Below, piece by piece: positions 49,718 to 64,000 of a stretch of DNA of 64,000 nt. The notes beneath the pieces were generated by a model. The model was not told the origin of the DNA and did not search any database. It saw nothing but the letters and a program-made list of their open reading frames with translations. Every line of letters starts with the position of its first letter. Within the stretch, counting starts at the first letter, position 1. Location of the stretch: NCBI GenBank assembly GCA_964246845.1, contig CAXTSB010000001.1:9366-73365 (forward strand), given 5' to 3'. The DNA comes from an uncultured Acidobacteriaceae bacterium. GTDB taxonomy: Bacteria; Acidobacteriota; Terriglobia; Terriglobales; Acidobacteriaceae. The position numbers and the translations under genes were made by a program.

Positions 49718-50266
49718 ATGGCTGCACGTTTGAAAGAAAAGTACTTGGCCGAGCTGAAGCCAGCGCTCCAAAAAGAGCTGGGCCTGAAGAACACAATGGC
49801 GGTGCCGCGCATCGAGAAGATCGTGCTCAACATGGGTCTGGGCGAGGCGACGCAGAACTCGAAGCTGCTCGACCCGTTGGTGGCCGATCTCGCGCAGATT
49901 GCGGGCCAAAAGCCGGTGACCACGCGCGCGAAAAAGTCCATTGCGGCCTTCAAGGTGCGCGAAGGAATGCCGATCGGTGCGATGGTGACCCTGCGCGGCG
50001 ATACGATGTATGAGTTCCTGGATCGGCTGATCCAGATCGGCCTGCCTCGGGTGCGCGATTTCCGCGGCGTCTCGACCAAGAGCTTTGACGGGCGCGGCAA
50101 CTACACGCTCGGCATGCGCGACCAGCTGATCTTCCCGGAGATCGACTACTCCAAGGTCGAAAAGCTGAAGGGCATGAATATCACGATCGTGACCACGGCG
50201 CCGGACGACAACCAGGCGCGGGCGCTTCTGCGCGCTTTCGGCATCCCGTTCCGCGCGGCGGCATAA
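49718..50266 (+). CDS. rplE: 50S ribosomal protein L5
   Basis: [17 protein letters not shown]... Start at the internal ATG of the track ORF. Confidence 0.98.
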
Positions 50267-50278
50267 AAGGACAATGAG

Positions 50279-50464
50279 ATGAGCACAACAGCAAAGCGCG
50301 TCAAGGACGAGCGGAAGCCGAAGTTCAAGTCGCGGCAGCATAACCGGTGCAAGCTGTGCGGACGCCCCCGGGCGTTTCTGCGCAAGTTCGGCATCTGCCG
50401 CTTGTGCTTCCGGCAGCTCGCGCACCAGGGCGACATTCCGGGCGTCGTCAAATCGAGCTGGTAA
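50279..50464 (+). CDS. rpsN: 30S ribosomal protein S14, type Z (zinc-binding, 61 aa)
   Basis: [22 protein letters not shown]. Confidence 0.98.
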
Positions 50465-50530
50465 GCCCAACCGTTCCCGCTGGTTCTCTCGGGCATAGGC
50501 CGGGAGCGAACGGGGAATGAGGAGATCTGA

Positions 50531-50929
50531 ATGAATCTGACCGATCCAGTAGCCGACTTTTTAACCCGCATCCGGAACGCCATCCGGGCGCGCCATCAAA
50601 AGCTCGATGTGCCCGCCTCCAAGCTCAAGGCCGAGATCGCCCGCATCCTCAAGGAAGAGGGCTATATCGCGAACTACAAGGCCGCCGAGGAGAACGGGCA
50701 CCAGGTGCTGCGGGTGTACCTCAAGTACGGCGCGAACAATGAAGCAGCGATCCGCGACCTGCACCGGGTGTCGCGGCCCGGTTGCCGCGTGTATCTCGGC
50801 CGCGACGAGATCAAGCGGGTGCAGGGCGGCCTCGGCATCGCGATCCTGACCACGCCGCGCGGGGTGATGACGGGTCGGCAGGCCAGGCGCGAAGGTGTGG
50901 GCGGCGAGCTGCTCTGCGAAGTCTGGTGA
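50531..50929 (+). CDS. rpsH: 30S ribosomal protein S8
   Basis: DPVADFLTRIRNA... Confidence 0.98.
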   Translation: MNLTDPVADFLTRIRNAIRARHQKLDVPASKLKAEIARILKEEGYIANYKAAEENGHQVLRVYLKYGANNEAAIRDLHRVSRPGCRVYLGRDEIKRVQGGLGIAILTTPRGVMTGRQARREGVGGELLCEVW

Positions 50930-51076
50930 GTCCTGGCCGGGCGGGCGGAAGCGGCCTCGCCGCGGTGCCTGTGGCTGATGCAAGCGCGGCGTTGCCGCGT
51001 GGGAAGTAAGGGCTGCAGTGGAACGAATGTCTCCAGAAGGCATTCGGGACTCGCAAGCCGCAGGAAAGGTACATAG

Positions 51077-51616
51077 ATGTCACGTATCGGTAGACAGCCG
51101 ATCCCGCTTCCGGCGGGGGTGAAGTACGCAGTGGAAGGAAATACGCTGCGGGTGGAAGGACCCAAGGGCAAGGTGGAACAGGCCATTCCTTCGGGAATCG
51201 CGCTCGAAACCCGCGACGGCCATATTATCGCCGAGCGGCAGGACGATTCACAGGCAGCCATCCACGGACTGACGCGCGCGCTTGTGTTCAACGCAGTGCA
51301 GGGCGTCACCAAGGGCTGGTCGAAGGACCTGGACATCGTTGGCATCGGCTACCGCGTGGAGCTGAAGGGCAAGAACACGGTTGTGTTCACGCTCGGCTAC
51401 TCGCACCCGATCGAGTTTCCGCTGCCCACCGGCATCACGGTTACGATCGACCCGAAGCAGACCCGCATCACCGTTTCCGGGATCGACCGGCAAAAGGTCG
51501 GTCAGGTGGCGGCCGACATGCGCTCACTGCGCAAGCCCGACCCGTATAAGAACAAGGGCGTCCGCTACGCGGGCGAGAAGCTGAAGAAGAAGGCCGGCAA
51601 GACCGGCTCCAAGTAA
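51077..51616 (+). CDS. rplF: 50S ribosomal protein L6
   Basis: [15 protein letters not shown]... Confidence 0.98.
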
Positions 51617-51684
51617 CCGAAAAACGACAACCCCGAACGCGGCCGACCCACAATCTGAACCGGCTGCGCTGTTAGGACACGAGC

Positions 51685-52041
51685 ATGATTCCGCAGGTGA
51701 AGCGCAACAAAATTCGACAAAAGGTGCATGCCCGCATCCGCAAGCATCTTCAAGGCACCGCGGAGCGGCCGCGCCTGAATGTCTACCGCTCCTTGAACCA
51801 CATCTACGCGCAGGTGATCGACGACGTGCAGGGCAAGACCTTGGCCGCTGCTTCGAGCGTCCATGCCAAGCTCCCGACCGGCGGCAACATCCAAGCGGCC
51901 GAGGAAGTGGGCAAACAGGTCGCCGAGCGCGCGCAGGCTGCCGGCATCAAGCAAGTGGTGTTCGACCGCGGCGGCTACCTCTATCACGGCCGCATCAAGG
52001 CGCTCGCGGACGCGGCGCGCGCGGCCGGACTCGACTTTTAA
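51685..52041 (+). CDS. rplR: 50S ribosomal protein L18
   Basis: [18 protein letters not shown]...[17 protein letters not shown]. Confidence 0.98.
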
Positions 52042-52065
52042 CGGTTCAGGGAAAAGAGAGCACAC

Positions 52066-52575
52066 ATGGCGCTGCAAGGAAGAAAACTCGACGCGGGGCA
52101 CTACAACCTGAAGGATCAGGTGGTGGCGATCAACCGCGTCACCAAAGTCGTCAAGGGCGGCAAGAACATGAGCTTCGCGGCGCTGGTGGTGATCGGCGAC
52201 CCGGGTTCGGGCGTGGTCGGCTACGGCTCCGGCAAGGCGAAGGAAGTGCCGCAGGCGATCCGTAAGGGCATCGAATCGGCCAAGAAGAATCTGGTGCGGG
52301 TCAACCTGACCGAGACCACGATCCCGCACCAGGTGCTGGGCCGGTTCGGCTCGGGGCAGGTGCTGCTCAAGCCCGCGCCCGAAGGCACGGGGGTGATCGC
52401 GGGCGGCGCGGTGCGCGCGGTGATGACCTCGGCCGGCGTGCAAAACGTGCTTACAAAGAGCTTAGGGACGGCCAACCCGCACAATGTGATCAAGGCGACC
52501 TTTGACGCGCTGGTCCAGCTGCGCGACCGCGCCGAAGTCGCCGCGCTGCGCGGCAAATCGGTGGAGGAGCTGTAG
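52066..52575 (+). CDS. rpsE: 30S ribosomal protein S5
   Basis: [27 protein letters not shown]. Confidence 0.98.
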
Positions 52576-52577
52576 CC

Positions 52578-52769
52578 ATGGCGGAGACCGCACAGAAGCT
52601 GCGTATTCAGTATTACCGGTCGATGATTCAAGCACCGGTCAAGCATAAGACGGTCGTCAAGGGCCTGGGCTTTACCCGGCTCCAGCAGGTCGTCGAGCGG
52701 GAAGACACGCCGTCGATTCGGGGCATGGTGAAGAAGATTCCGCACCTGGTGCGGATACTCGAAGCATAA
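52578..52769 (+). CDS. rpmD: 50S ribosomal protein L30
   Basis: 63 aa with LRIQYYRS...KGLGF, in the expected spc-operon position. Confidence 0.93.
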   Translation: MAETAQKLRIQYYRSMIQAPVKHKTVVKGLGFTRLQQVVEREDTPSIRGMVKKIPHLVRILEA

Positions 52770-52857
52770 GACGAGAACACGTCCCGAAGGGACCGCGCGC
52801 CGCGTAGGCGGTTTTACAAAAGCGAGTCGGGGGAACCCGGCGTTCAGCGAGGGAAGT

Positions 52858-53298
52858 ATGAACTTATCGAATCTCCGCGCGCCCGCGAAGGCGAACCGGA
52901 ATAAAAAGCGTGTGGGCCGGGGCATGGGCTCCGGTACCGGCAAGACCTCGGGGCGCGGCCACAAAGGCCAAGGATCCCGTTCGGGCTCAAGCCTGATGCG
53001 CGGCTTCGAGGGCGGCCAGATGCCGCTCCACCGCCGCCTGCCGAAGCGCGGCTTCACCAACATCTTCCGCACCGAGTACACCGTGCTGAATCTCCAGCGC
53101 ATTGCCGAGATGGGTGAGCAGGAGTTGACGCTCGACCGCCTGCTCGCGCTCGGATTTCTCAAGCGTCGCGGCGAGCTGTTGAAGATCCTCGGCAACGGCG
53201 AGCTCGCGGCCGCCGTGACCATCCACGCGCACAAGTTCTCCAAGGGCGCGCAGGAGAAGATTGAGGCAGCCGGAGGCAAAGCCGTCCTGATCGCCTAA
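52858..53298 (+). CDS. rplO: 50S ribosomal protein L15
   Basis: RVGRGMGSGTGKTSGRGHKGQ. Confidence 0.98.
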   Translation: MNLSNLRAPAKANRNKKRVGRGMGSGTGKTSGRGHKGQGSRSGSSLMRGFEGGQMPLHRRLPKRGFTNIFRTEYTVLNLQRIAEMGEQELTLDRLLALGFLKRRGELLKILGNGELAAAVTIHAHKFSKGAQEKIEAAGGKAVLIA

Positions 53299-53371
53299 GA
53301 AGCGTTCGAGGGCCGAAGCCAACTGAGGTCCTCACGCTGTATGCTGGCAATCACCGGAGTTTGCTCACCCC

Positions 53372-54766
53372 ATGCTTGAAAAGCTTGCCAATATCTTTCG
53401 CGTTCCCGAGCTGCGCGTGCGCGTTCTGTTCACGCTCGGCATGCTGGCTGTGTACCGGCTCGGCGCGCACATCCCGACGCCGGGCATTGACGCGCGCGCG
53501 CTCACGAGCTTCTTTTCGCAGCAGGGCGGCTCCCCGCTCGGGCTGGTGGATCTGTTCAACGGCGGCAACCTGCGCCGCATGACGGTGTTCGCGCTCGGCA
53601 TCATGCCGTACATCACCGCGTCGATCATCTTTCAGCTGTTAACGGTGGTGTATGAGCCGCTCGCGAAGCTGCAAAAAGAGGGCGAGGCAGGGCGGCGCAA
53701 GATCACGCAGTGGACTCGCTATGTCACTGTTCTTTTAGGGATAGTGCAATCGACCGCCATCGCGCTCGCGTTGTCGCACGGCTCGGGCGGGCAGCAGATC
53801 GTGCTCCATCCCGGCTTCGGTTTCGTGTTTACCACGGTCGTGACGTTGACGACCGGCACAGCCTTCATCATGTGGCTGGGTGAGCAGATCACCGACCGCG
53901 GCATCGGCAACGGTATGAGCCTGCTGATCTTCGCGGGCATCGTGGTCGGCTTGCCGCGCGGCATTGCCGAGATCATCCAAACCGCGCGCGGGGAGAAATT
54001 CGGCGCGCTCACCATCCCGGCGCTGATCCTGCTGATCGCGGCCATGGCGCTGCTGGTGGCTTTCATCGTCTATGTGGAGCGCTCGGAGCGGCGCGTGCCG
54101 GTGCAGTATGCCAAGCGCATCGTGGGCCGGCGCATGATGGGCGGCCAATCCACTCACCTGCCGCTCAAGGTCAACTCCGGCGGCGTGATGCCGGTCATCT
54201 TCGCATCCTCGGTTCTGGCCGCGCCGCTCTTGTTCTCGCAGGCGCAGTTTGTGAAGAACTCAGCCTTCCTATCCCGCATCTTTGAAGGGCTGCGCGCGGG
54301 CGAGCCTTGGTATGAGCTGCTCTATATTGTCGCGATCATCTTCTTCGCGTACTTTTACATCTCGATCGTGTTCCGTCCGGACGATATCGCCGACAATATG
54401 CGCAAGTACGGCGGCTTTATTCCAGGCATCCGACCGGGTAAGCGCACGTCCGATTACATCAACGACATCCTGACCCGGCTCACGCTGGCGGGTGCGCTGT
54501 ACCTGATCCTGATTTCGCTGGTACCGCAGATCCTGATCTCCGGCATCCACCTGAATCACCTGCCGCTGCTGGGGGGCGTGTTCGAGCACCTGCCGCTGTG
54601 GATGACGAACGGCCTGGGCTTCAACTTTTACTTCGGCGGCACGTCGCTGCTGATCGTCGTCGGCGTTGCCATGGATACGGTGAACCAGGTCGAGTCGCAA
54701 CTGATTATGCGGCACTACGACGGCTTTTCCGCGAAGAACCGTGTGCGGGGAAGGCGGTCCTGGTAG
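53372..54766 (+). CDS. secY: Preprotein translocase subunit SecY
   Basis: ELRVRVLFTLGMLAVYRLGAHIPTPG and a 10-TM layout. Confidence 0.98.
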   Translation: MLEKLANIFRVPELRVRVLFTLGMLAVYRLGAHIPTPGIDARALTSFFSQQGGSPLGLVDLFNGGNLRRMTVFALGIMPYITASIIFQLLTVVYEPLAKLQKEGEAGRRKITQWTRYVTVLLGIVQSTAIALALSHGSGGQQIVLHPGFGFVFTTVVTLTTGTAFIMWLGEQITDRGIGNGMSLLIFAGIVVGLPRGIAEIIQTARGEKFGALTIPALILLIAAMALLVAFIVYVERSERRVPVQYAKRIVGRRMMGGQSTHLPLKVNSGGVMPVIFASSVLAAPLLFSQAQFVKNSAFLSRIFEGLRAGEPWYELLYIVAIIFFAYFYISIVFRPDDIADNMRKYGGFIPGIRPGKRTSDYINDILTRLTLAGALYLILISLVPQILISGIHLNHLPLLGGVFEHLPLWMTNGLGFNFYFGGTSLLIVVGVAMDTVNQVESQLIMRHYDGFSAKNRVRGRRSW

Positions 54767-55487
54767 CTTGCCTATCCCCGATACGCAGTTTCACCCGGGA
54801 CCGATCCTGTTCATGGGCGCGCCCGGCGTCGGCAAAGGAACGCAGGCCAAGGCGTTGATGCGCTGCTGGTCCGTCCCGCAGATTTCAACCGGCGACCTCC
54901 TGCGCGCGCATGTGGCCGCCGGCTCCGAGTTAGGTACGACGGCCAAGGCCATCATGGACTCCGGACGGCTTGTTCCGGATGAGGTCGTGAACCGTATGGT
55001 GGAGCAGCGCCTGACCGAGCCTGATACCCGTCGGGGTTACCTGCTGGACGGGTTTCCGCGGACTCTGGCGCAAGCCGAGTGGCTGGACGCCGAGCTTGCC
55101 CGGCACGGCGGGGCGGGCAGGGGTTCCGAGGACGACGCGCCGGTGATCGCGGTGTCCATCCGGGTGGAGCCGTCGCTATTGGTGCGGCGCGTCACCGGCC
55201 GGCGGGTTTGCCCGGTCTGCGGCTGCATCTACAACGTGCATTTCCAGCCGCCGAAAATCGCGGGCATCTGCGACCGCGAAGGCGCGGCGCTGATGTGCCG
55301 CGACGACGACGCTGCGGCGGTGTTTGAGGGCCGTTTACAGGCCTACGAGGCGCAAACCGCGCCGGTGGTGGCGCATTACCGCAAGCAGGGCCGGTTGCTG
55401 GAGGTGGACGGGGAGCGCGCGCCGGAAGAGGTGACGCAGGCGCTGGTCGGCGCTGTCGAGGAGCAAAGGACGCGGCAGTGGCGGTAA
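54741..55487 (+). CDS. adk: Adenylate kinase (zinc-lid type)
   Basis: P-loop GAPGVGKGTQA and lid CPVCG...ICD. Start is either GTG 54741 (26-nt overlap with secY) or TTG 54768. Confidence 0.93.
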   Translation: MCGEGGPGSLPIPDTQFHPGPILFMGAPGVGKGTQAKALMRCWSVPQISTGDLLRAHVAAGSELGTTAKAIMDSGRLVPDEVVNRMVEQRLTEPDTRRGYLLDGFPRTLAQAEWLDAELARHGGAGRGSEDDAPVIAVSIRVEPSLLVRRVTGRRVCPVCGCIYNVHFQPPKIAGICDREGAALMCRDDDAAAVFEGRLQAYEAQTAPVVAHYRKQGRLLEVDGERAPEEVTQALVGAVEEQRTRQWR

Positions 55488-56245
55488 ACCTGAAGTCCCG
55501 CAATGAGATTGAACGCATGCGCCGCGCGGGTGAGGTGGTTCGCGAGCTGCTCGAAGCCGTGCGCCCGCTGGTGAAGCCCGGCGCGACGACGATGGATCTG
55601 GAAGCGGCCGCCGACGCGAAGGTGCGGCAGCTCAGGGTCATGCCCGCGTTTAAGGGTTACCGGGGCTCGGCCAACGTGCCATACCCGTGCGTGCTCTGCA
55701 CCAGCATTAACGACGAGGTGGTGCACGGCATCCCGTCCAAGCGCCGGGTGCTGCGCGAGGGCGATATTGTATCCATCGATACGGGCGTGATCGTGGACGG
55801 GTTTTACGGTGATACAGCGACCACGATCGCGGTCGGAACCAAGCTTGATGAACGGACGGCAAAACTGCTCGCGACCACAGAGGACTCGCTCAAGATCGGA
55901 ATCGAAGCGGTGAAGAAGGGCGGCACGCTGGGTGACGTCGGTGCCGCGGTGCAGCAAAGGGTGGAGCGGGACGGCTTCTCGATCGTACGTGAGTTTGTCG
56001 GGCACGGCATCGGAACGAGCCTCCACGAAGACCCGCAGGTGCCGAACTACGGACGGCGCGGCCGCGGCATGAAGGTGCGTGAGGGCATGGTGTTCTGCAT
56101 TGAGCCGATGGTGAACGCGGGCAAGCCCAAGGTGCAGGTGCTCAACGACGGGTGGACGGCGGTGACGGTGGACGGAAGCCGCAGCGCGCACTTCGAGCAC
56201 ACGATCGCGGTGACCGCGAATGGGATCGAGATTCTGACACGCTGA
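55478..56245 (+). CDS. map: Type I methionine aminopeptidase
   Basis: VHGIPS, DIVSIDTG, GHGIG and FCIEPM. Confidence 0.97.
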   Translation: MAVNLKSRNEIERMRRAGEVVRELLEAVRPLVKPGATTMDLEAAADAKVRQLRVMPAFKGYRGSANVPYPCVLCTSINDEVVHGIPSKRRVLREGDIVSIDTGVIVDGFYGDTATTIAVGTKLDERTAKLLATTEDSLKIGIEAVKKGGTLGDVGAAVQQRVERDGFSIVREFVGHGIGTSLHEDPQVPNYGRRGRGMKVREGMVFCIEPMVNAGKPKVQVLNDGWTAVTVDGSRSAHFEHTIAVTANGIEILTR

Positions 56246-56325
56246 CCCGGTTTCGGGAGAGCAGGCGTGGCACACTAAGAGATGGAGAGCGGGGCTGATG
56301 CAGGCCCAAGCGGATCGGGAGACGG

Positions 56326-56544
56326 GTGTCGAAGGAAGATGCGATTGAGGTCATGGCGACGGTGCTGGAAACACTGCCCAATGCCATGTTCAAGGTGGAG
56401 CTGGAAAACAAGCACCAAGTGCTGGCGCACGTATCGGGCAGGATGCGGAAGAACTTCATCCGCATCCTGCCCGGCGACCGCGTCGCCGTGGAGCTGAGCC
56501 CGTACGACCTGACCCGCGGGCGGATCGTGTACCGGTACAAGTAA
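56326..56544 (+). CDS. infA: Translation initiation factor IF-1
   Basis: [52 protein letters not shown] start. Confidence 0.98.
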
Positions 56545-56545
56545 C

Positions 56546-56615
56546 AGGGTAGAGGGTAGAGGGTAGAAACAACGACAAGCGGCTTTGCCTGCTCTACCCC
56601 TCACCCTCTTCCCTC
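56546..56615. repeat. (GGGTAGA)n heptamer repeat hairpin in the infA-rpmJ spacer
   Basis: AGGGTAGAGGGTAGAGGGTAGA (56546-56567) faces the imperfect complement CTCTACCCCTCACCCTCTTCCCT (56592-56615). Confidence 0.7.
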
Positions 56616-56629
56616 CGAAAGGAGATATA

Positions 56630-56743
56630 ATGAAGGTTCGTGCTTCGGTAAAGAAGATTTGCGACAAGTGCAAGGTCATTCACCGCAGGGGCGTGGTTCG
56701 CGTCATCTGCGAGGTTTCCAAGCACAAGCAGCGCCAGGGCTGA
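56630..56743 (+). CDS. rpmJ: 50S ribosomal protein L36 (not in ORF track, 37 aa)
   Basis: Translated by hand: [44 protein letters not shown] at 56621-56624. Confidence 0.95.
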
Positions 56744-56878
56744 GCGCCGGGCGTTCCAAATATGGTTCTCAGGCGAGTTCGCTCCGGCACCAATGAGCGT
56801 GCGATGAACCTGAGCGATCCATCCACAATCAGCGGCTTCGGGCGGAGCAGACACCGCGCCGGGCATTAGGAAAGCACC

Positions 56879-57259
56879 ATGGCACGTATCGCCGGCGTCG
56901 ACCTGCCGAACAACAAGCAGACCCGCATCGCGCTGACCTACATCTACGGCATCGGGAACTCGCGCGCGCTGCGCGTATTGACCAAAGCCGACATCGACCC
57001 ATACCGCAAGCTCGCCACCTTGAGTGAAGACGAGATCAACCGCATCCGTCAAGCCATTGAGCAGGAAGGCGGCGTGGAAGGCGATGCGCGCAAGGAAGTC
57101 GCAATCAACATCAAGCGGCTGATCGATATCCAGAGCTACCGCGGACTGCGCCACCGGCGCAACCTGCCGGTGCGCGGCCAGCGCTCGCACACCAACGCGC
57201 GCACCCGGAAAGGCCCGCGCAAGGGCACCGTGGCCGGAAAGAAGAAGGCGACTAAGTAA
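56879..57259 (+). CDS. rpsM: 30S ribosomal protein S13
   Basis: [14 protein letters not shown]... Confidence 0.99.
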
Positions 57260-57687
57260 TGGCGAAGGCGCAAAAGAAAGCATCCGGCTCGGCTGCGAAG
57301 GCGGGCAAGGGCAAGAAATTCAAGAAGCGCGAACGAAAGAATGTCCCGTTCGGGCTCGTACACATCCAGGCCACGTTCAACAACACGATCGTGACCATCA
57401 CCGACGGGCAGGGCAATACGCTCTCCTGGAAGAGCTCCGGCTCGCTCGGCTTCCGCGGTTCGCGCAAGGGCACGCCCTTCGCGGCGCAGCAGGCAGCGCA
57501 GAACGCGGCCAACCAAGCGCGCGATCACGGGCTGCGCTCGGTCGATGTGCGTGTGTCCGGGCCGGGTTCGGGCCGTGAGTCGGCGGTGCGCGCGCTTGCC
57601 GCCGCGGGCATTGATGTGCGGTCGATTCGGGACGTCACGCCGATTCCGCACAACGGCTGCCGGCCTCCGAAGCGGCGTCGTGTCTAA
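57259..57687 (+). CDS. rpsK: 30S ribosomal protein S11
   Basis: [16 protein letters not shown]... Confidence 0.98.
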
Positions 57688-57692
57688 GAGCG

Positions 57693-57735
57693 AGGGACAA
57701 GGAACAGGGACCAGGGGGAGCCTGATCCCTGTTCC
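57693..57735. repeat. Hairpin repeat in the rpsK-rpsD spacer sharing a 16-mer with the rpsL-rpsG spacer
   Basis: AGGGACAAGGAACAGG occurs at 57693-57708 and identically at 38984-38999. Arms GGAACAGGGACCAG (57701-57714) and CTGATCCCTGTTCC (57722-57735) form a hairpin with one mismatch. Confidence 0.65.
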
Positions 57736-57814
57736 CTGATCCCTGCCTCACCACCCCCGGACCGGGATGAAGCTCACGCGTAAACCGGTCGACACTTGAA
57801 CCACGAGGAGAACC

Positions 57815-58444
57815 ATGGCACGCTACACCGGCGCTGTTTGCCGCCTTTGCCGCCGCGAAGGCATGAAGCTGTTTTTGAAGGGCACCCGCTGCTTCGGCGA
57901 GAAGTGCGCAATTGAAAAGCGCAATTTTGCTCCCGGCCAGCACGGGCGCGACCGCAAAGCCAAGATTGTCGGCTACGGCCTGCAGCTGCGCGAAAAGCAG
58001 AAAGCCAAGCGCATCTACTTCGCGCAAGAGTCGCAGTTCCGCGCGTACTACGAGAAGGCCAACACCGCGACCGGCGTCACCGGCGAGCTCCTTCTACAGC
58101 AGCTGGAGCGCCGTTTGGACAATGTCGCGTACCGGCTGGGCTACGCCACCTCGCGCCGACAAGCCCGGCAGATCGTACGTCATGGCCATGTTGAGGTGAA
58201 TGGCCGCAAGGTCAACATCCCATCGTTCCAGGTATCGGTCGGCGATACGATCAAGGTCCGCCCCGCGGCGTCCAAGTTCGGTGTGATCGAAACGGCGCGG
58301 GAGTTTGCCTCGCACCAGCCCACGCCGAACTGGCTGCAGATTGACGCGGCCGAGCTTGCGGGCAAGATCGTCGCGCTTCCCACCCGCCAGGATATTCAGC
58401 TGCCGGTCAACGAACAGCTGATCGTCGAGTTGTACTCGAAGTAA
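57815..58444 (+). CDS. rpsD: 30S ribosomal protein S4 (Cys4 N-terminal form)
   Basis: [31 protein letters not shown]. Confidence 0.98.
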
Positions 58445-58511
58445 TCAAGTGTTGTAGGAGCGCGGACCGCCGCAGAATGCTTCGCGGCGGCGCGCACAAG
58501 GAGAAGCACCT

Positions 58512-59612
58512 ATGTTGTGGAGAGGATTTCAGCGCCCCAAGCGCCTCCAAGTCGATACCGAAACCCTGACCGACCGCTACGGCAAGTTCAGCGCGCAGCC
58601 GTTTGAACGCGGCTTCGGCACCACGATCGGCAACTCGCTGCGCCGTACGCTCTTGAGCTCGATTGAAGGCGCGGCCGTCACCGCCGTCAAGATCGAGGGT
58701 GTGCTGCACGAGTTTCAGTCCATCACCGGCGTGGTGGAGGATGCGACCGACATCATCCTGAACCTCAAACAGATCCCGTTCAAGCTGAACGGCGACGGCC
58801 CGAAAGCGTTGTATCTTCGGGTCGACGAGCCCGGCGTAGTCACGTCCGGCATGGTCGAAGCGGATGGCGATGTCGAAATCTTGGACAAGGACGTGTACAT
58901 CGCGACGGTGAGCGAGGGCGGACGGCTCGACATGGAAATGCGCTTGAAGCGTGGACGCGGCTACATCTCGGCCGACCGCAACTTCGACGGCGACCTGGGC
59001 CTCGGCTTTATGCCGATCGACTCCGTTCACTCGCCGGTGCGCAAGGTGAACTACGCGGTGGAAGCGGCGCGTTTGGGCCAGATCACCGATTACGACAAAC
59101 TGACGCTCGAAGTGTGGACCAACGGGTCTGTCGTGCCGGCCGACGCGGTCGGGCTCGCGGCGAAGCTGCTCAAGGACCACATGAGCATCTTCATCAACTT
59201 CGAGGAAGAAATCGAGCTTGACGGGCGTTTGGATGACCGCGGCGGGCTGCTCCGCAACGACAACCTGAACCGTTCGGTAGAGGAGCTGGAACTGAGCGTC
59301 CGGTCCTACAACTGCCTGAAAAACGCGAACATTCAGACGATCGGCGAGCTGGTGCAGAAGACCGAAGCCGAGATGCTGAAGACCAAGAACTTCGGCCGCA
59401 AGAGCCTGAACGAGATCAAGGAAATCCTCGCGCAGATGGGGCTCTCGCTCGGCATGAAGATTGACGACCAAGGCAATGCCGTTCCAGGCCCGACCTCGGT
59501 TCTGCCCTCGCAGCAGCTTGCGTCCAGCCAGTACACCCGGTTCGAGGACGATGAGGATGACATCATCGACGATGAATCGGACCTGCAGTACCAGGAGCCG
59601 GAGAACTTTTAA
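58512..59612 (+). CDS. rpoA: DNA-directed RNA polymerase subunit alpha
   Basis: [20 protein letters not shown] and C-terminal domain [17 protein letters not shown]. Confidence 0.98.
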
Positions 59613-59625
59613 AGGCAGGGTAAGG

Positions 59626-59770
59626 GGGGAAGGATAGAGGGTAGAGAAGACCCGCTCCCCATCCCTCCGACTCGCGCTGAAACTTGCTCTAGGGTTCAAG
59701 GGCCGAGGGAGGTTTCACTCTCCCCTCCACCCTCTACCCTCTACCCTCTACCCTTTTTTTGAAGAGAGAC
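59626..59770 (+). repeat. Long imperfect inverted heptamer-repeat structure ending in T7, between rpoA and rplQ
   Basis: Purine-rich arm CAGGGTAAGGGGGGAAGGATAGAGGGTAGAGAAG (59626-59659). Pyrimidine-rich arm CTCTCCCCTCCACCCTCTACCCTCTACCCTCTACCC (59728-59763). Followed by TTTTTTT (59764-59770). Confidence 0.65.
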
Positions 59771-59777
59771 CCGAACC

Positions 59778-60269
59778 ATGCGCCATCGCAAAGCAGGCTT
59801 CAAACTCGGACGCAAAACCCCGCACCGCCGCGCGCTCCTGCGCAACCTGACCACGTCCATTCTGATGGAAGACCGGGTCGAGACCACGGTGACCAAGGCC
59901 AAGGCTGTGCGGCCCCATGTGGAAAAGATGATCACGCTCGCGAAGCGCGGCGACCTCCACTCCCGCCGCCAAGCGCTTGCCTTCCTGATGACGCGCGAGT
60001 CGGTCACGCGGCTGTTCGACACGGTCGGGCCCCGCTATGGAGACCGTCAGGGCGGCTACCTGCGCATCGTCCGCACGGGTTTCCGCAAGGGCGACGGCGG
60101 CGAAACCGCGCTGATCGAGCTGCTCGGGGCTGAGCAGGTGCTGGACGAGAAGCGCCAAAAGCGCGCCGCCGCCCGGGAAAAGCGTCGGGAAGAGATGCAG
60201 GCCGCCCTCGCCGCGAACGGCCCCACGCCGGGGACGGAAGGCGCGGAGCCGGAGCAAGAACAGGGGTAG
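59778..60269 (+). CDS. rplQ: 50S ribosomal protein L17
   Basis: MRHRKAGFKLGRKTPHRRALLRNL... Confidence 0.98.
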   Translation: MRHRKAGFKLGRKTPHRRALLRNLTTSILMEDRVETTVTKAKAVRPHVEKMITLAKRGDLHSRRQALAFLMTRESVTRLFDTVGPRYGDRQGGYLRIVRTGFRKGDGGETALIELLGAEQVLDEKRQKRAAAREKRREEMQAALAANGPTPGTEGAEPEQEQG

Positions 60270-60282
60270 CTGTTTACTTGGG

Positions 60283-60309
60283 GAAGGCAGTGGCTTCGCC
60301 ACTGCCTTC
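60283..60309. terminator. Bidirectional terminator hairpin between convergent rplQ and the PRTase::propeller gene
   Basis: 11-bp perfect stem GAAGGCAGTGG/CCACTGCCTTC with a 5-nt loop. Confidence 0.7.
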
Positions 60310-60320
60310 TTATGGAAAGA

Positions 60321-62012
60321 TCAGAAAGTACTTTCCCTGAAACAGCTTAAAACGCCGTCATTGGTTAGTGCAAAGAATCGATGGGCATGTTCCGGATCTA
60401 TACCAATTGGCGTCGTCAGTCGCTCATGCAACTGGATATACGACACAACCTCCGACGTCACTGCATCCAGACAATACAACCGGCCTGAAGTTGCGCCCAC
60501 ATACAACTTGTCCCTGATTTTGCGAATCCCGCCAAAGAACTTGCCCAGCAGCTCGGTCCGGCGAAGCAAGACTCCGTCGTCCGCGCTGAACGTGTAAAGG
60601 TGCTTATCCGTAGCCGGCACAAATACCTTATTTCCATCGATCAAGGGCTGAGAGTAGACGGCGTCTTCCGCCTGAGCCGTCCATCGCACACGCGCCTCAG
60701 CCAGTGAATAGGAATAAACCCTGCCGGACAAGTCGCCGAAGACGACCGCATCACGATCGGCATCGTAAGCGGGCGACGACTTTAACGCGCCTTTAAGCCG
60801 AAGGATCGCGCGAATGTACCCGGTATCGGCTTCCAAAATCAGCAGTTCCGCATCATTTGTCCCGCAGCAAACCTGGTTATGCTTCTCAACGTACAAAGGC
60901 GTTCCATGCACCATTCCCGGTACGGCGCACTCCCAGACGCGCTCTCCGGTCTTGAGGTCGAGCGCCACGATACTGCCCTGCTTCGTACCCAAGCTATGCT
61001 CAAGCCCAATCACGATGCGATTGGAAGGTTTAATCCAAGCCGGCGAGGAGCCTACCCAGTCCGCTTCCATAAACTCCCAGTGTAAGTTGCCTGTGGCTTG
61101 GTCCAAGCAATACACATTTCCGTCATAAGCCCCGAAGATCACTGTCCCCTCAGCGAGCAGAGGCGAGGAAAAAATTCCTTTGTCCGACGGAACGGTCTGG
61201 AAAGACCATAGCTCTTGCCCATTCTCGGCATCGACGGCGTAAAAACACCCATTCTCCGCGCCGAAGTAGACAGTACCTTGGTTGACTGCGGGTATTGACT
61301 TCGGGATCACATGAGGACTCCGAACCGGCGTCCCCGGACGAAACTGCCATGTACGATGCCATGAAAAATTTCCCATTTGATCGGTACTCGCGTCATCGAG
61401 AGTAATCCCAAGCTCCTCAAGAGCGAACTCCGTCATCAGAGAGCATCCGGTGTTGATAACCCGTTGCGCGCCGAGATCTCTGTGGAAGTCGACAAGCGCC
61501 CAAAAAAGCGGAACCTGCAATCCGTTGAAGCGCAGGACTTCCATCCCTTGGACAAAGGTTTCGGCACTGTTCAGGATGTCATCGACGAAGATAACCGGCA
61601 GGCCGTTTGGCTCACCCTCGATCGCGCGCATGCGACCGCTGCCCTTGCGCTCTTTACGAATGATAAGCCCGTTAAGAACGGTACCTTCCGCAAACGCGGT
61701 ATGCTGGATGCCCGCCATGAGCGGGATGCCGGTCATCTCCAGGCATGCGAGCTGAAACGGACCGAAGTCTCTGACGGCATCCAGGAAAAGACGACCGACT
61801 CGCTGCATCGACACAGGGTCAAGGAGCAGAACCCTTGTATCGACTAGCCATTGAAGTGCTCTTCCATTTGTACCTGTGAGACATTCTCGATTTTGCCTGA
61901 CTACGCTCCTGCCGATCAGCGAAGCCAGCAAGGCTTCGCGATCGGCAGAAAGGTCATCTTGAGTCAGGTAAGGCGGTGCATCTTGCTTGAAAGACACACT
62001 GGTCTCCTTCAT
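60321..62012 (-). CDS. Phosphoribosyltransferase-like domain fused to a PQQ/BamB-like beta-propeller (563 aa, no signal peptide)
   Basis: N-terminal OPRT-like layout (TGTNGRALQWLVDTRVLLLDP, LEMTGIPLMAG, PRPP-loop-like VIFVDDILNSAET). C-terminal seven to eight repeats of the type YAVDAENGQELW and YCLDQATGNLHW. About 50% GC by eye. Confidence 0.8.
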   Translation of the reverse strand: MKETSVSFKQDAPPYLTQDDLSADREALLASLIGRSVVRQNRECLTGTNGRALQWLVDTRVLLLDPVSMQRVGRLFLDAVRDFGPFQLACLEMTGIPLMAGIQHTAFAEGTVLNGLIIRKERKGSGRMRAIEGEPNGLPVIFVDDILNSAETFVQGMEVLRFNGLQVPLFWALVDFHRDLGAQRVINTGCSLMTEFALEELGITLDDASTDQMGNFSWHRTWQFRPGTPVRSPHVIPKSIPAVNQGTVYFGAENGCFYAVDAENGQELWSFQTVPSDKGIFSSPLLAEGTVIFGAYDGNVYCLDQATGNLHWEFMEADWVGSSPAWIKPSNRIVIGLEHSLGTKQGSIVALDLKTGERVWECAVPGMVHGTPLYVEKHNQVCCGTNDAELLILEADTGYIRAILRLKGALKSSPAYDADRDAVVFGDLSGRVYSYSLAEARVRWTAQAEDAVYSQPLIDGNKVFVPATDKHLYTFSADDGVLLRRTELLGKFFGGIRKIRDKLYVGATSGRLYCLDAVTSEVVSYIQLHERLTTPIGIDPEHAHRFFALTNDGVLSCFRESTF

Positions 62013-62350
62013 TATCTATGACCCAACTGAATACCCATTGCGAAAGCGATACCGATTCCCGCAATTGAGGTGATTGCAGCAAAATTCATCTCCTGCCGCA
62101 ACCGTACGAATTTACTTCGGCTGGTTTCATCAAGATTTGCTTCGATCAGAAAGCTTTTCTTGTTGAGAACAAGAAAGCTGTGCCACGTGGAGATGAGAAA
62201 AAGATAGGCAACAGTAAATGAAACCCATCCTAGAACTCCCGCGTGACTGTGGATCATGCTGATCGGCATGAGAATCCCGATCAGCATGAAGATGCCATTG
62301 CGACCCGTTGTGTTAGTCATGTCGTTCTTATCCGAGGCATTTTTATCCAC
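62012..62350 (-). CDS. Small membrane protein (112 aa, three hydrophobic helices)
   Basis: IFMLIGILMPISMI, VLGWVSFTVAYLFLISTW and AAITSIAGIGIAFAMGI. The stop shares one nt with the downstream ATG (TAATG at 62012). Confidence 0.65.
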   Translation of the reverse strand: MDKNASDKNDMTNTTGRNGIFMLIGILMPISMIHSHAGVLGWVSFTVAYLFLISTWHSFLVLNKKSFLIEANLDETSRSKFVRLRQEMNFAAITSIAGIGIAFAMGIQLGHR

Positions 62351-62388
62351 GGTTCCTCCTGCTTTGGTGAACGATTCTGAATCCTGGT

Positions 62389-63315
62389 CTAAGAAGAAGA
62401 TGTACTTGAGCAGAAAATAGCCTGGTAAGCGGCGATGGCACCTATTCCAGCAATGAAAGCAAGGAGAACCTCAGGCGACAATGATAGGGAGGCCGCCAGA
62501 GCAGCGTAGGTTTTTGGGTCAGCATTCTTAAGGAATTGGTAGCTTAGAGAGGCACCCAAAGCGATGAGCCCATCGATCGCGCGGCATGTATTCACTTGCG
62601 AGATGTAGAGGACATTCTCATAAACTATGTCCCCGTATTGATCTTCGCTCGTATCGGGATCACCCAGCTCGCCCGGTGTTTCACCGCCGTCGCCGCTATA
62701 GCCATCGTCGCCGCCGTTCCCATCGCTGTTCGGAGGCATTGGGCCACCGCAATCGGGAGAAACGGCCATAGCTTCCAAGCGACTACTTGCGACAGGATTG
62801 GTTGCTGCGTCATTGGCGGTGGATAGAAGGCTAGGATGGACTAACAAGCTTTCACTGCTCGTGTAGAGGGCTGGTTCGATATCCCCGCTTTGGGTGGCCT
62901 TTAAAATAGCAAGAGGCTTGACCGGACTGGTGATCTTTACGAGGGGATCCGCTGACCGCCTCTTCATCAAGTTATAAAGACCCACATTGAAAGCTTCGTA
63001 GCCGTATGTGGAATTGAACCGCACCATCATCGCTGACGCAGCTTCGCCGCTCGTCACTTTATTTGCAAGTAGAGCTTGCATCTGTCCGGCGGAGAGACTG
63101 ACGCCTGCCTTGGTGAGGGTATCAAATTCAGACTGGAAGTTGCTCGGATTGTAAGGTGGCAGACCGCTTGTCTTGACTTGGTCCGACGCTAGAGTGTTGA
63201 TCCCCCCTTGCTGCATTTGTTCGAAGATGAATCGCGTTGATGTGGCGAGTTCGCCAGACACGAATGGGTCGTAGTTGGGCGTTTTCTGGAGCTTTGCCAT
63301 TTTCTGGGCGACCAT
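62389..63315 (-). CDS. Hypothetical protein (308 aa as read) with acidic Gly/Asp-rich linker and C-terminal hydrophobic anchor; probably the body of a frameshifted Tat-exported protein
   Basis: Clean low-GC ORF. DGNGGDDGYSGDGGETPGELGDPD linker. C-terminal LLAFIAGIGAIAAYQAIF. The upstream Tat-signal ORF is in another frame. Confidence 0.65.
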   Translation of the reverse strand: MVAQKMAKLQKTPNYDPFVSGELATSTRFIFEQMQQGGINTLASDQVKTSGLPPYNPSNFQSEFDTLTKAGVSLSAGQMQALLANKVTSGEAASAMMVRFNSTYGYEAFNVGLYNLMKRRSADPLVKITSPVKPLAILKATQSGDIEPALYTSSESLLVHPSLLSTANDAATNPVASSRLEAMAVSPDCGGPMPPNSDGNGGDDGYSGDGGETPGELGDPDTSEDQYGDIVYENVLYISQVNTCRAIDGLIALGASLSYQFLKNADPKTYAALAASLSLSPEVLLAFIAGIGAIAAYQAIFCSSTSSS

Positions 63316-63332
63316 AGCGAGAGCTGTCGTCG

Positions 63333-63473
63333 CTATCGTGTTCTGCTTATTCGGGGGGTGGGGGCAGAAGCGTGGGCGAGATTCTGCGCCGAACCCTTTT
63401 CAAGCGCGGCGGGTAGGGTGGAGGCGGCGGCTGCGAAAGCAGTCGCGGAGACAAAGCGGCGACGAGAGATCAT
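63333..63473 (-). pseudogene. 46-codon ORF encoding a twin-arginine signal peptide, out of frame with 62389-63315 across a C5-A-C6 tract
   Basis: Hand translation: MISRRRFVSATAFAAAASTLPAALEKGSAQNLAHASAPTPRISRTR*. The plus-strand tract GGGGGGTGGGGG lies at 63353-63364. One extra C/G would fuse it to the 308-aa ORF. Confidence 0.55.
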
Positions 63474-63714
63474 GGCGCGTGTTCCTCAAGGGGGTTGAGT
63501 GCACTCCGTGGTCTTCATGTATTCATCGTGCCCTGACAAAGGGTCTGGCAATTGCGGGTCAACCGGCGGAGCGTGCTGCGAACAGCGGAGCCAAGTTCTT
63601 CAAAAGCGGGGGAAACAGGCTCTTGCAAAAGTGAAAGAACAATTGCACGTTGCTCGCGGGGCTGTCAAGCCCTGTTTGCGAAACGATGTAGCTCTACGTC
63701 ACTGAAGGCACCCG

Positions 63715-64000
<286 letters not shown>

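Follow-up and report, generated by a model that had tools for sequence, protein, structure and literature searches.

A horizontally acquired, GC-poor cassette between rplQ and guaB in an uncultured Acidobacteriaceae bacterium, encoding a Tat-signal protein, a small membrane protein, and a phosphoribosyltransferase-propeller protein

Background

A toxin-like protein that is exported, a small partner protein, and a maturation enzyme together make a familiar theme. A variation on this theme is the best-supported, if tentative, reading of the three genes (A, B, and C) found between rplQ and guaB in a 64,000 nucleotide stretch of DNA from an uncultured Acidobacteriaceae bacterium, here called the window. 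There is no described system with these components. Related loci are referred to by number (L001 and so on).

Halocin C8 of haloarchaea is made from a precursor, ProC8, which has a twin-arginine translocation (Tat) signal, an N-terminal immunity domain (HalI), and a 76-aa C-terminal peptide (bioRxiv 10.64898/2026.07.27.741052). Protein A likewise combines in one polypeptide a Tat signal, an N-domain of ~200 aa, and a Cys-containing hydrophobic C-terminal region of ~60-80 aa, and both are small conflict-type loci. However, A has no sequence similarity to the halocin, and neither PF22862 nor TIGR04449 matches it. A also has 2 conserved Cys, a Gly/Asp linker, and a separate membrane protein, B, after it, whereas halocin loci carry ABC transporters and no phosphoribosyltransferase (PRTase)-propeller. 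As there is no sequence relationship, halocin C8 is an analogy in layout only, and A was rejected as a halocin C8 homologue.

With thiazole/oxazole-modified microcins (TOMMs) of the microcin B17 type, the likeness lies in C, relatives of which come directly after YcaO and SagB in 22-24 loci of the candidate phyla radiation (CPR), next to exported precursors, and in a proposed cytoplasmic modification that precedes export. Neither YcaO nor SagB is present within 60310-63714, however, and A, at ~360 aa with two conserved Cys, is neither a short precursor nor the bearer of a Cys/Ser-rich core; short precursors of the Cys/Ser/Thr-rich type were found in the CPR loci only. In the full-text literature searched there is no paper that combines YcaO, a phosphoribosyltransferase, and a propeller, and nothing relevant that links PRTase-propeller proteins to YcaO clusters or to Gly/Asp-rich proteins; the TOMM landscape paper makes no mention of phosphoribosyl, pyrroloquinoline quinone (PQQ), or propeller.

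The two halves of C each have well-described relatives. The N-terminal 200 aa keep the flexible loop (RKExK…G…EG) and the phosphoribosyl pyrophosphate (PRPP) loop (VDD…(S/T)(G/A)xT) of PyrE, the orotate phosphoribosyltransferase (OPRT), but C scores under the equivalog cut-off, is fused to an eight-bladed (340-aa) propeller, and lies outside any pyrimidine operon. The propeller is of the same repeat family as BamB and the PQQ propellers, as also are the sensor propellers of Ser/Thr kinases such as AfsK. Unlike BamB, C is predicted to be cytoplasmic, is under the BamB cut-off, and has no PQQ-dehydrogenase context.

Polymorphic toxin-immunity systems of the RHS/YD kind resemble the cassette in having an exported protein followed by a small, fast-evolving one, at variable spots, and locus L092 provides a parallel among the relatives of C. 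A differs from these toxins in having no RHS, pre-toxin, or known toxin domain in Pfam, and in place of an enzyme its presumed effector is a helical, hydrophobic domain. Known anti-phage systems differ in that the cassette has no credible defence-model match and no defence-island, phage, or plasmid habit.

Acquisition of the cassette at a variable junction

The cassette occupies 60310-63714, where the GC content is 53.6% compared with 63.6% in the remainder of the window. No 3.4-kb window of the 64-kb stretch has a lower value, the mean of all such windows being 63.3% (sd 2.4%). GC at third codon positions (GC3) falls likewise, to 0.57 in A, 0.53 in B, and 0.61 in C, from 0.84 in rpoA, 0.84 in rplQ, and 0.87 in the 3' end of guaB. 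An earlier note on this DNA had described such a drop, to about 50% GC, which is slightly low; the profile is, as it had expected, not flat. The flanks are also as it had named them, with Ribosomal_L17 (rplQ, 59778-60269) on the left, followed by a perfect terminator-like hairpin, and on the right an open reading frame (ORF) ending at 63715 that is the C-terminus of inosine monophosphate dehydrogenase (guaB). Its descriptions of the three genes and their domains were right in each case: all are on the minus strand in the order A-B-C, and the stop codon of B overlaps the start of C as TAATG (62010-62014), the overlap that it had reported.

The junction was compared using three contig sets that have an L17 clustering at 90% identity with that of the window. 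The contigs (L087-L091) all retain the ribosomal-protein/rpoA/rplQ block and the convergent guaB. Between rplQ and guaB, L087-L090 have a mannitol dehydrogenase and a major facilitator superfamily transporter, and L091 has two genes with CarboxypepD_reg domains. The cassette is thus not universally conserved between these genes, and in this lineage the gap from rplQ to guaB is a hotspot for insertion, with three different cargoes including this cassette.

Elsewhere, five more loci (L001, L002, L003, L039, L175) have A, B, and C together with their order unchanged, confirming the co-occurrence across genomes. In L002 the cassette comes after guaB, with a TPR gene on its far side; in L001 and L003 it is behind a sigma-like gene, and in L039 it is between two lepB genes. 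Whichever the host, the GC content of the cassette, or of the A-B pair where this is alone, is 6-12 points under that of the flanks. The DNA similarity between hosts begins at a TTGACA box ~190 nt upstream of A and ends at the stop codon of C, this end being seen against L001, L002, L003, and L039. The ~190-nt leader and the TTGACA box match L001 and L002 at the DNA level, despite the different upstream genes there, and this region (63474-63668) is the upstream edge of the cassette in the alignment. The hairpin at the other end is likely to be both a bidirectional terminator and the downstream edge.

Of the traits associated with genomic islands, deviant composition and presence/absence polymorphism at one junction were found. 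There is no tRNA in 50000-64000, no integrase or other mobility gene within the cassette segment, and there are no meaningful flanking direct or inverted repeats marking an insertion. The presence of other cargo at the junction in relatives, together with the recurrence of the GC-poor cassette in other contexts, shows that this is a horizontally acquired operon, as the earlier note had proposed when it called it an acquired, uncharacterised three-gene cassette.

The sigma-like gene next to the cassette in L001 (1447-2016) and L003 (41-460) encodes a protein of ~140-190 aa with sigma-70 region 4 only, the two copies being 66% identical. This extracytoplasmic function (ECF)-type gene was considered as a component of the system and dropped, since it is absent from the window and from the loci that have A and B alone.

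The A and B pair

The signal ORF of A encodes a twin-arginine signal peptide, MISRRRFVSATAF..., read as MISRRRFVSATAFAAAASTLPAAL…AHA, and the SRRRF twin-arginine signal is conserved across the A family, including the homologues. In the body, a helical N-domain is followed by an acidic Gly/Asp linker that is disordered, and this by a hydrophobic, Gly/Ala-rich domain at the C-terminus. Four features are conserved in the family: the RR signal, the N-domain motif N/Y-D/N-P-F-x-S-G-E-L-A, the acidic Gly-rich linker, and two Cys. These two conserved Cys bracket a Gly/Ala-rich hydrophobic stretch of ~60 aa, and in several homologues the second is the last residue of the protein. At the position of the linker there are purer (GD)n or (GDGG)n tracts in L003, L039, and the database protein P0140.

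A is extremely rare. A full HMMER scan of 1.84 billion representative proteins gave only 14 relatives, a word search of 5.8 billion proteins gave only 3, and a scan of JGI metagenome contigs gave none. There is no usable match for A in Pfam or NCBIfam at E<=1 (E<=10 in Pfam for the A segments), PADLOC, or PHROGs. The AlphaFold2 model of A made from 14 sequences has a predicted local distance difference test (pLDDT) score of 56 overall, with 60-80 for the N-domain, ~72 for the C-domain, and <50 for the linker; with 3 sequences the score is 34 and the model is useless. Foldseek found no match to the model in the PDB, the best E being ~5.

B has three hydrophobic helices and a charged loop in its hydropathy profile, and starts at a GTG that has AGGAGG 5 nt upstream. 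Searches of Pfam, NCBIfam, PADLOC, and PHROGs gave no usable family for B, with below-cut-off noise only from the first two, and a word-indexed search returned only B itself. By these searches, A and B are orphan families.

A three-helix protein of ~100 aa comes directly after every A homologue that has readable surroundings. In four distant A-like loci (L162-L167) a B-like gene is present and the gene that follows it is not C. Since the B-like protein is always found after A, with or without C, sequence comparison shows A and B to be the core pair of the cassette, and since they occur without C, the three do not make an obligate trio. Among the loci first collected, tblastn found relatives of A and B beside C only in L001, L002, L003, and L039; L175 was added through a relative of A. 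C is joined to A and B only in the clade of the window, in six loci in all.

Where C is present, it is close to B. The B-C junction is an overlap or a gap of <=38 nt in the five loci where it could be read (the window, L001, L002, L003, L039), and in L175 a fragmented C ORF also overlaps B. Within this operon the genes have diverged at different rates at non-synonymous sites: dN is 0.33 for A and 0.50 for B, 3-4 times faster than the 0.12 of C. Fast divergence of A and B is a pattern typical of interacting conflict proteins, and would be consistent with such a role for this pair, of which it is no proof.

The frame break in gene A

The earlier note had described gene A as interrupted by a frameshift, and the break is located at a C5-A-C6 tract. 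The signal and the body are in two frames here, while in L002 the homologue, of 380 aa, is unbroken, the same signal sharing a frame with the body, which indicates that the frameshift is a genuine feature of this sequence and not a misreading. The tract at the homologous site is ~C13 in L001 (at ~2900-2925) and a long C run in L003 (at ~1040-1060), in both just after the Tat signal of A, and is short in L002, where the frame is kept. The frame errors of A in the window and in L001 are of opposite direction. This variable poly-C tract after the Tat signal could serve as a switch for phase variation, be a place of slippage, or be an artefact of assembly.

Split copies of A are present in L001, L039, and L175 too. 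In L039 (6631-9506), the split is inside the (GD)n repeat and C ends early, at 509 aa; in L175 (475-3736), where coverage is 4x, both A and C are split into two ORFs. The splits in L039, a metagenome-assembled genome (MAG) taken to be long-read, and in L175 are probably assembly errors, and for that reason any single frameshift in the A family should be treated with caution.

C and its neighbourhoods

A Pfam search of the three proteins identifies a propeller in C, with below-cut-off noise for B and nothing for A. The propeller of C matches PF13570 at 157.9 bits (cut-off 133) and PF13360 at 116 bits (E 2e-33). Against pyrE (TIGR00336) the score is 39.6 bits (E 4.5e-10), under the equivalog cut-off of 106.8, and against the BamB equivalog (TIGR03300) it is 102 bits, the cut-off being 285. 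Profile searches of the PDB find OPRTs at ~1e-18 and propellers at 1e-25 to 1e-41.

The OPRT-like domain has the motif SG..W..D.R, the flexible loop IRKERKGSGRMRAIEG, and the PRPP loop VIFVDDILNSAET, the last of which aligns with the IDDLVSTGET motif of solved OPRTs. In 32 members of the C family, W55, D58, R60, R119, K120, E132, G133, and D144 are invariant, and D145 is nearly so. Compared with L001, dN/dS for C is 0.09, which is strong purifying selection. As the flexible-loop and PRPP-loop motifs are invariant and dN/dS is so low, it is plausible that C is an active PRTase. The N-terminus is that of a hydrophilic PRTase domain with no signal peptide or lipobox, and in the absence of a signal peptide C is predicted to be cytoplasmic.

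The C family is widespread and uncharacterised. Its hosts are Acidobacteriota, many Patescibacteria/CPR, Gamma- and Alphaproteobacteria, a Nitrospirae MAG, and a Bathyarchaeia MAG. Where family members have been given names, these are generic: "PQQ-binding-like beta-propeller repeat protein" (NCBI) and BamB/orotate phosphoribosyltransferase (JGI). Its neighbours were clustered over 80 genome loci. In the CPR loci, a SagD-type YcaO cyclodehydratase (24 loci) and a SagB peptide dehydrogenase (22 loci) are immediately upstream of C. Small proteins are also found in 12 of these loci, each with a signal anchor at the N-terminus, an AHAD(A/V)P motif, and, at its very end, a tail rich in Gly, Cys, Asp, and Ser. 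These are candidate precursors similar to that of microcin B17, and look like an undescribed TOMM precursor family.

In Acidobacteriota and Proteobacteria, relatives of C are fused to an Asp/Asn hydroxylase and are beside secreted proteins with (GDGG)n tails. Those of the Bryobacterales/Terriglobia have an added N-terminal Asp/Asn beta-hydroxylase domain (PF05118), making a triple fusion with the OPRT-like and propeller domains, and adjoin a Soli_cterm (TIGR03437) protein with a long (GDGG)n tail. In the alphaproteobacterial locus L063 (243-13359), two giant proteins of 1685 and 1383 aa, with Gly/Asp/Tyr tracts and metzincin-like C-termini carrying HExxH, flank a sulfotransferase and a hydroxylase-PRTase-propeller gene, which suggests that several modifications may be made to one acidic tract. 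The neighbour of C in L053 is a CHAP-domain protein that has a GD linker. In L077 there are a Tat-signal protein and a (GD)n protein of which the C-domain is hydrophobic, in L020 an ORF of 93 aa that is rich in Gly, Asp, and Cys and hydrophobic at its N-terminus, and in L097 a radical SAM enzyme. In L092 (2910-7635), a Tat-signal YD/RHS-repeat protein and a 124-aa multi-helix membrane protein are followed by C, in the same order as A-B-C.

A strict Gly/Asp tract is found <=4 kb from C in 30 of 94 loci. A looser rule gives 57 tracts for the 728 kb near C and 16 for 868 kb elsewhere, a density ~4 times that of the control DNA. A Gly/Asp-rich neighbour recurs in at least six unrelated gene contexts, in several phyla, so that what C is repeatedly partnered with is an exported polypeptide rich in Gly and Asp, and peptide- or protein-modifying enzymes usually accompany it. 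The company kept by the C family (YcaO/SagB, Asp hydroxylase, radical SAM, sulfotransferase, Gly/Asp-rich polypeptides) suggests an undescribed modification of proteins or peptides.

Possible role of the cassette

The explanation preferred here, which is put forward tentatively, is that A is a Tat-exported, bacteriocin-like or otherwise membrane-active protein, B its membrane partner or immunity protein, and C a cytoplasmic maturation enzyme that targets the Gly/Asp tract. A would be exported folded via Tat when the poly-C tract is in frame. Its flexible acidic Gly/Asp tract would join the N-domain to the Cys-bracketed C-domain, and this hydrophobic domain would enter the membrane, either as an anchor or, once released, as a bacteriocin-like peptide. 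B, as a fast-evolving three-helix protein, would be the cognate membrane partner of A or the protein giving immunity to it. C would be an enzyme added to the A and B pair in the clade of the window. In the cytoplasm, its propeller would dock the Gly/Asp-rich part of the protein due for export, and its OPRT-like domain would modify this part, or else a small molecule that is bound, with PRPP before export takes place. Toxicity, immunity, and the substrate and chemistry of C are what we infer from this arrangement of genes and domains.

Several observations weigh against this explanation. No sequence or fold match of A to any bacteriocin was found in the Pfam/NCBIfam and Foldseek-PDB searches. 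The Gly/Asp tract of A is weaker than those in other loci and fails the strict tract definition, and the association of C with such tracts is seen in under half of the C loci, many of which are related to one another and not independent. A and B occur without an adjacent C in L162-L167, so C may be dispensable. In this genome A may be silent or dead, being out of frame in the window and, in most assemblies, split. Furthermore, type I PRTases are not known to act on proteins.

That the OPRT-like/propeller proteins are a new class of post-translational modification (PTM) enzyme, with C carrying out a PRPP-dependent modification of protein, is doubtful as a claim on its own. In this case PRPP would phosphoribosylate or activate residues of Gly/Asp tracts in exported proteins and in precursors similar to those of peptides that are made on the ribosome and modified after translation (RiPPs), a suggestion that is equally speculative. 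Were it true, the cassette would be a minimal natural example, with A as substrate, B as partner, and C as enzyme, of the first protein-directed type I phosphoribosyltransferase, and of a new RiPP/PTM chemistry common to CPR, Acidobacteriota, and Proteobacteria. If the preferred explanation of an exported bacteriocin-like A with its partner B and maturation enzyme C is right, the orphan A family, with a membrane partner of its own, would supply candidate bacteriocins from soil Acidobacteriota, and the cassette would be a compact and tractable entry point to the unstudied PRTase-propeller family. If it is wrong, the cassette remains a clear instance of small-scale acquisition without mobility genes.

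The occurrence of A and B without C, the many other neighbourhoods in which the C family is found, and the much greater constraint on C than on A and B would all fit a self-contained pair, either toxin and immunity protein or a structural part of the envelope, with C as a separate passenger, such as a nucleotide-salvage or regulatory enzyme, that only shares their operon in one clade. Such an arrangement is rather unlikely, as the tight B-C junction is kept in all five loci where it was read, with an overlap in L175 too, and relatives of C recur beside exported Gly/Asp-rich proteins in several phyla; a score below the pyrE equivalog cut-off and the fusion to a propeller also argue against plain pyrimidine metabolism. 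With less probability still, the module may be a decaying remnant that is currently functionless whatever its ancestral role, A being a pseudogene here. That the signal and body of A are in different frames, with A also split in three other loci, would support decay, but apart from the break the two parts of A are intact and conserved, neither B nor C is truncated here, and selection on C is purifying. The break in A is also in a homopolymer of variable length, where phase variation, transcriptional or ribosomal -1 slippage, or an assembly error fit equally well, and the splits in L039 and L175 may be errors. Alternatively, A might be a periplasmic Ca2+ or metal binder with a role in the envelope or in metal handling, exported by Tat and anchored by its C-terminal tail, with its acidic Gly/Asp tract as the binding site, B as its membrane partner and C as an assembly factor in which the PRTase domain only senses nucleotide or PRPP. 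Acidic Gly-rich tracts do resemble calcium-binding repeats, and the Tat signal and terminal hydrophobic helices of A and the BamB-like propeller of C are what such a system might have. It is improbable nonetheless, given that the whole family keeps the catalytic OPRT motifs without variation, which would be unexpected in a mere sensor, that the fast divergence of A and B better suits conflict proteins than housekeeping parts of the envelope, and that A is so extremely rare, with 14 hits in 1.84 billion representatives.

The earlier note had seen in the cassette a defence-like, signalling, or nucleotide-modifying module. PRTase domains are present in some defence systems, and in an anti-phage or nucleotide-signalling module A and B would be the surface or membrane sensor and C the cytoplasmic nucleotide-type effector. 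An acquired, GC-poor cassette at a variable spot might be expected of such a system, and in L004 a distant relative of C is beside a type I restriction system and a ParD antitoxin. This is, however, the only locus with a restriction-system neighbour among ~90 of the C family, which are dominated by peptide maturases and secreted proteins and not by defence genes. PADLOC gave no credible defence match for any of the three proteins, with nothing for A or B and only a chance-level match of C to DpdD (E 0.005), and PHROGs matched only a phosphoribosyl-transferase family, to the PRTase domain of C. Full-length copies were not found on plasmids or viral contigs, where there were only two weak matches (22% identity), both on viral contigs. 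The evidence from PADLOC, PHROGs, plasmid and viral sequences, and neighbourhoods thus gives no support to the earlier claim, and a role in defence or nucleotide signalling is very unlikely.

Further features of the cassette and the C loci

The coordinates of the features described above are collected in Table 1, together with the loci of the two recurrent arrangements around C.

Table 1. Features of the cassette in the window, and loci with recurrent neighbours or fusions of C
Feature	Position or loci	Strand	Basis
Hairpin with perfect 12-nt arms (60283-60294/60298-60309), between convergent rplQ and gene C	60283..60309	.	Inverted-repeat search
Gene C, 563 aa	60321..62012	-	ORF and domain profiles
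PQQ-like beta-propeller domain of C, ~aa 220-560	60333..61355	-	Pfam, NCBIfam, PDB profile search
OPRT-like domain of C, ~aa 25-205	61398..61940	-	End-to-end alignment to solved OPRTs
Gene B, 112 aa	62012..62350	-	ORF and hydropathy
Gene A body, 308 aa ORF	62389..63315	-	ORF and family alignments
C-terminal hydrophobic domain of A, Cys244 to Cys302, three predicted helices	62410..62586	-	Hydropathy, alignment, AlphaFold2
Acidic Gly/Asp-rich tract of A (…GGPMPPNSDGNGGDDGYSGDGGETPGELGDPDTSEDQYGD…)	62620..62748	-	Sequence and alignment
Gene A signal ORF, 46 codons	63333..63473	-	ORF; frame differs from A body
C5-A-C6 tract where the frame of A is lost	63353..63364	-	Alignment; a -1 shift would rejoin signal and body
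Conserved upstream region: TTGACA -35-like hexamer (63663-63668) and ~190-nt leader	63474..63668	-	DNA alignment with L001, L002
CPR loci with AHAD(A/V)P precursors	L018, L022, L045, L049, L051, L054, L062, L065, L068, L070, L075, L080		On the minus strand, upstream of YcaO
Loci with hydroxylase-OPRT-like-propeller triple fusion	L008, L009, L012, L016, L019, L024, L027, L030, L034, L036, L043, and others		Domain profiles

An Rfam scan of 60000-64000 gave chance matches only, with no family that fits 63474-63668, and for the leader RNAalifold, with only 3 sequences, found no convincing covariation. A scan with promoter and terminator consensus sequences called nothing on the strand of the cassette. 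In L039 there is a TTGACA-N17-TATAAT sequence ~340 nt upstream.

The database gene call for C (P0001) is 495 aa, which is 68 residues short of the ORF in the window and a coverage of 88%. The missing residues appear to be N-terminal, and such a late start would cut the W55/D58/R60 motif. Alternatively, the true start of C may be a GTG that lies 15 nt downstream of the ATG and has AAGGAG before it.

The CPR proteins with the AHAD(A/V)P motif, of which there are two tandem copies in L045, adjoin the trio of YcaO, SagB, and PRTase-propeller and a conserved TPR membrane protein; the motif might be a cleavage site of the AxA type. The loci with the triple fusion also have a conserved secreted protein of 360-450 aa and a gene for 360-430 aa on the opposite strand.

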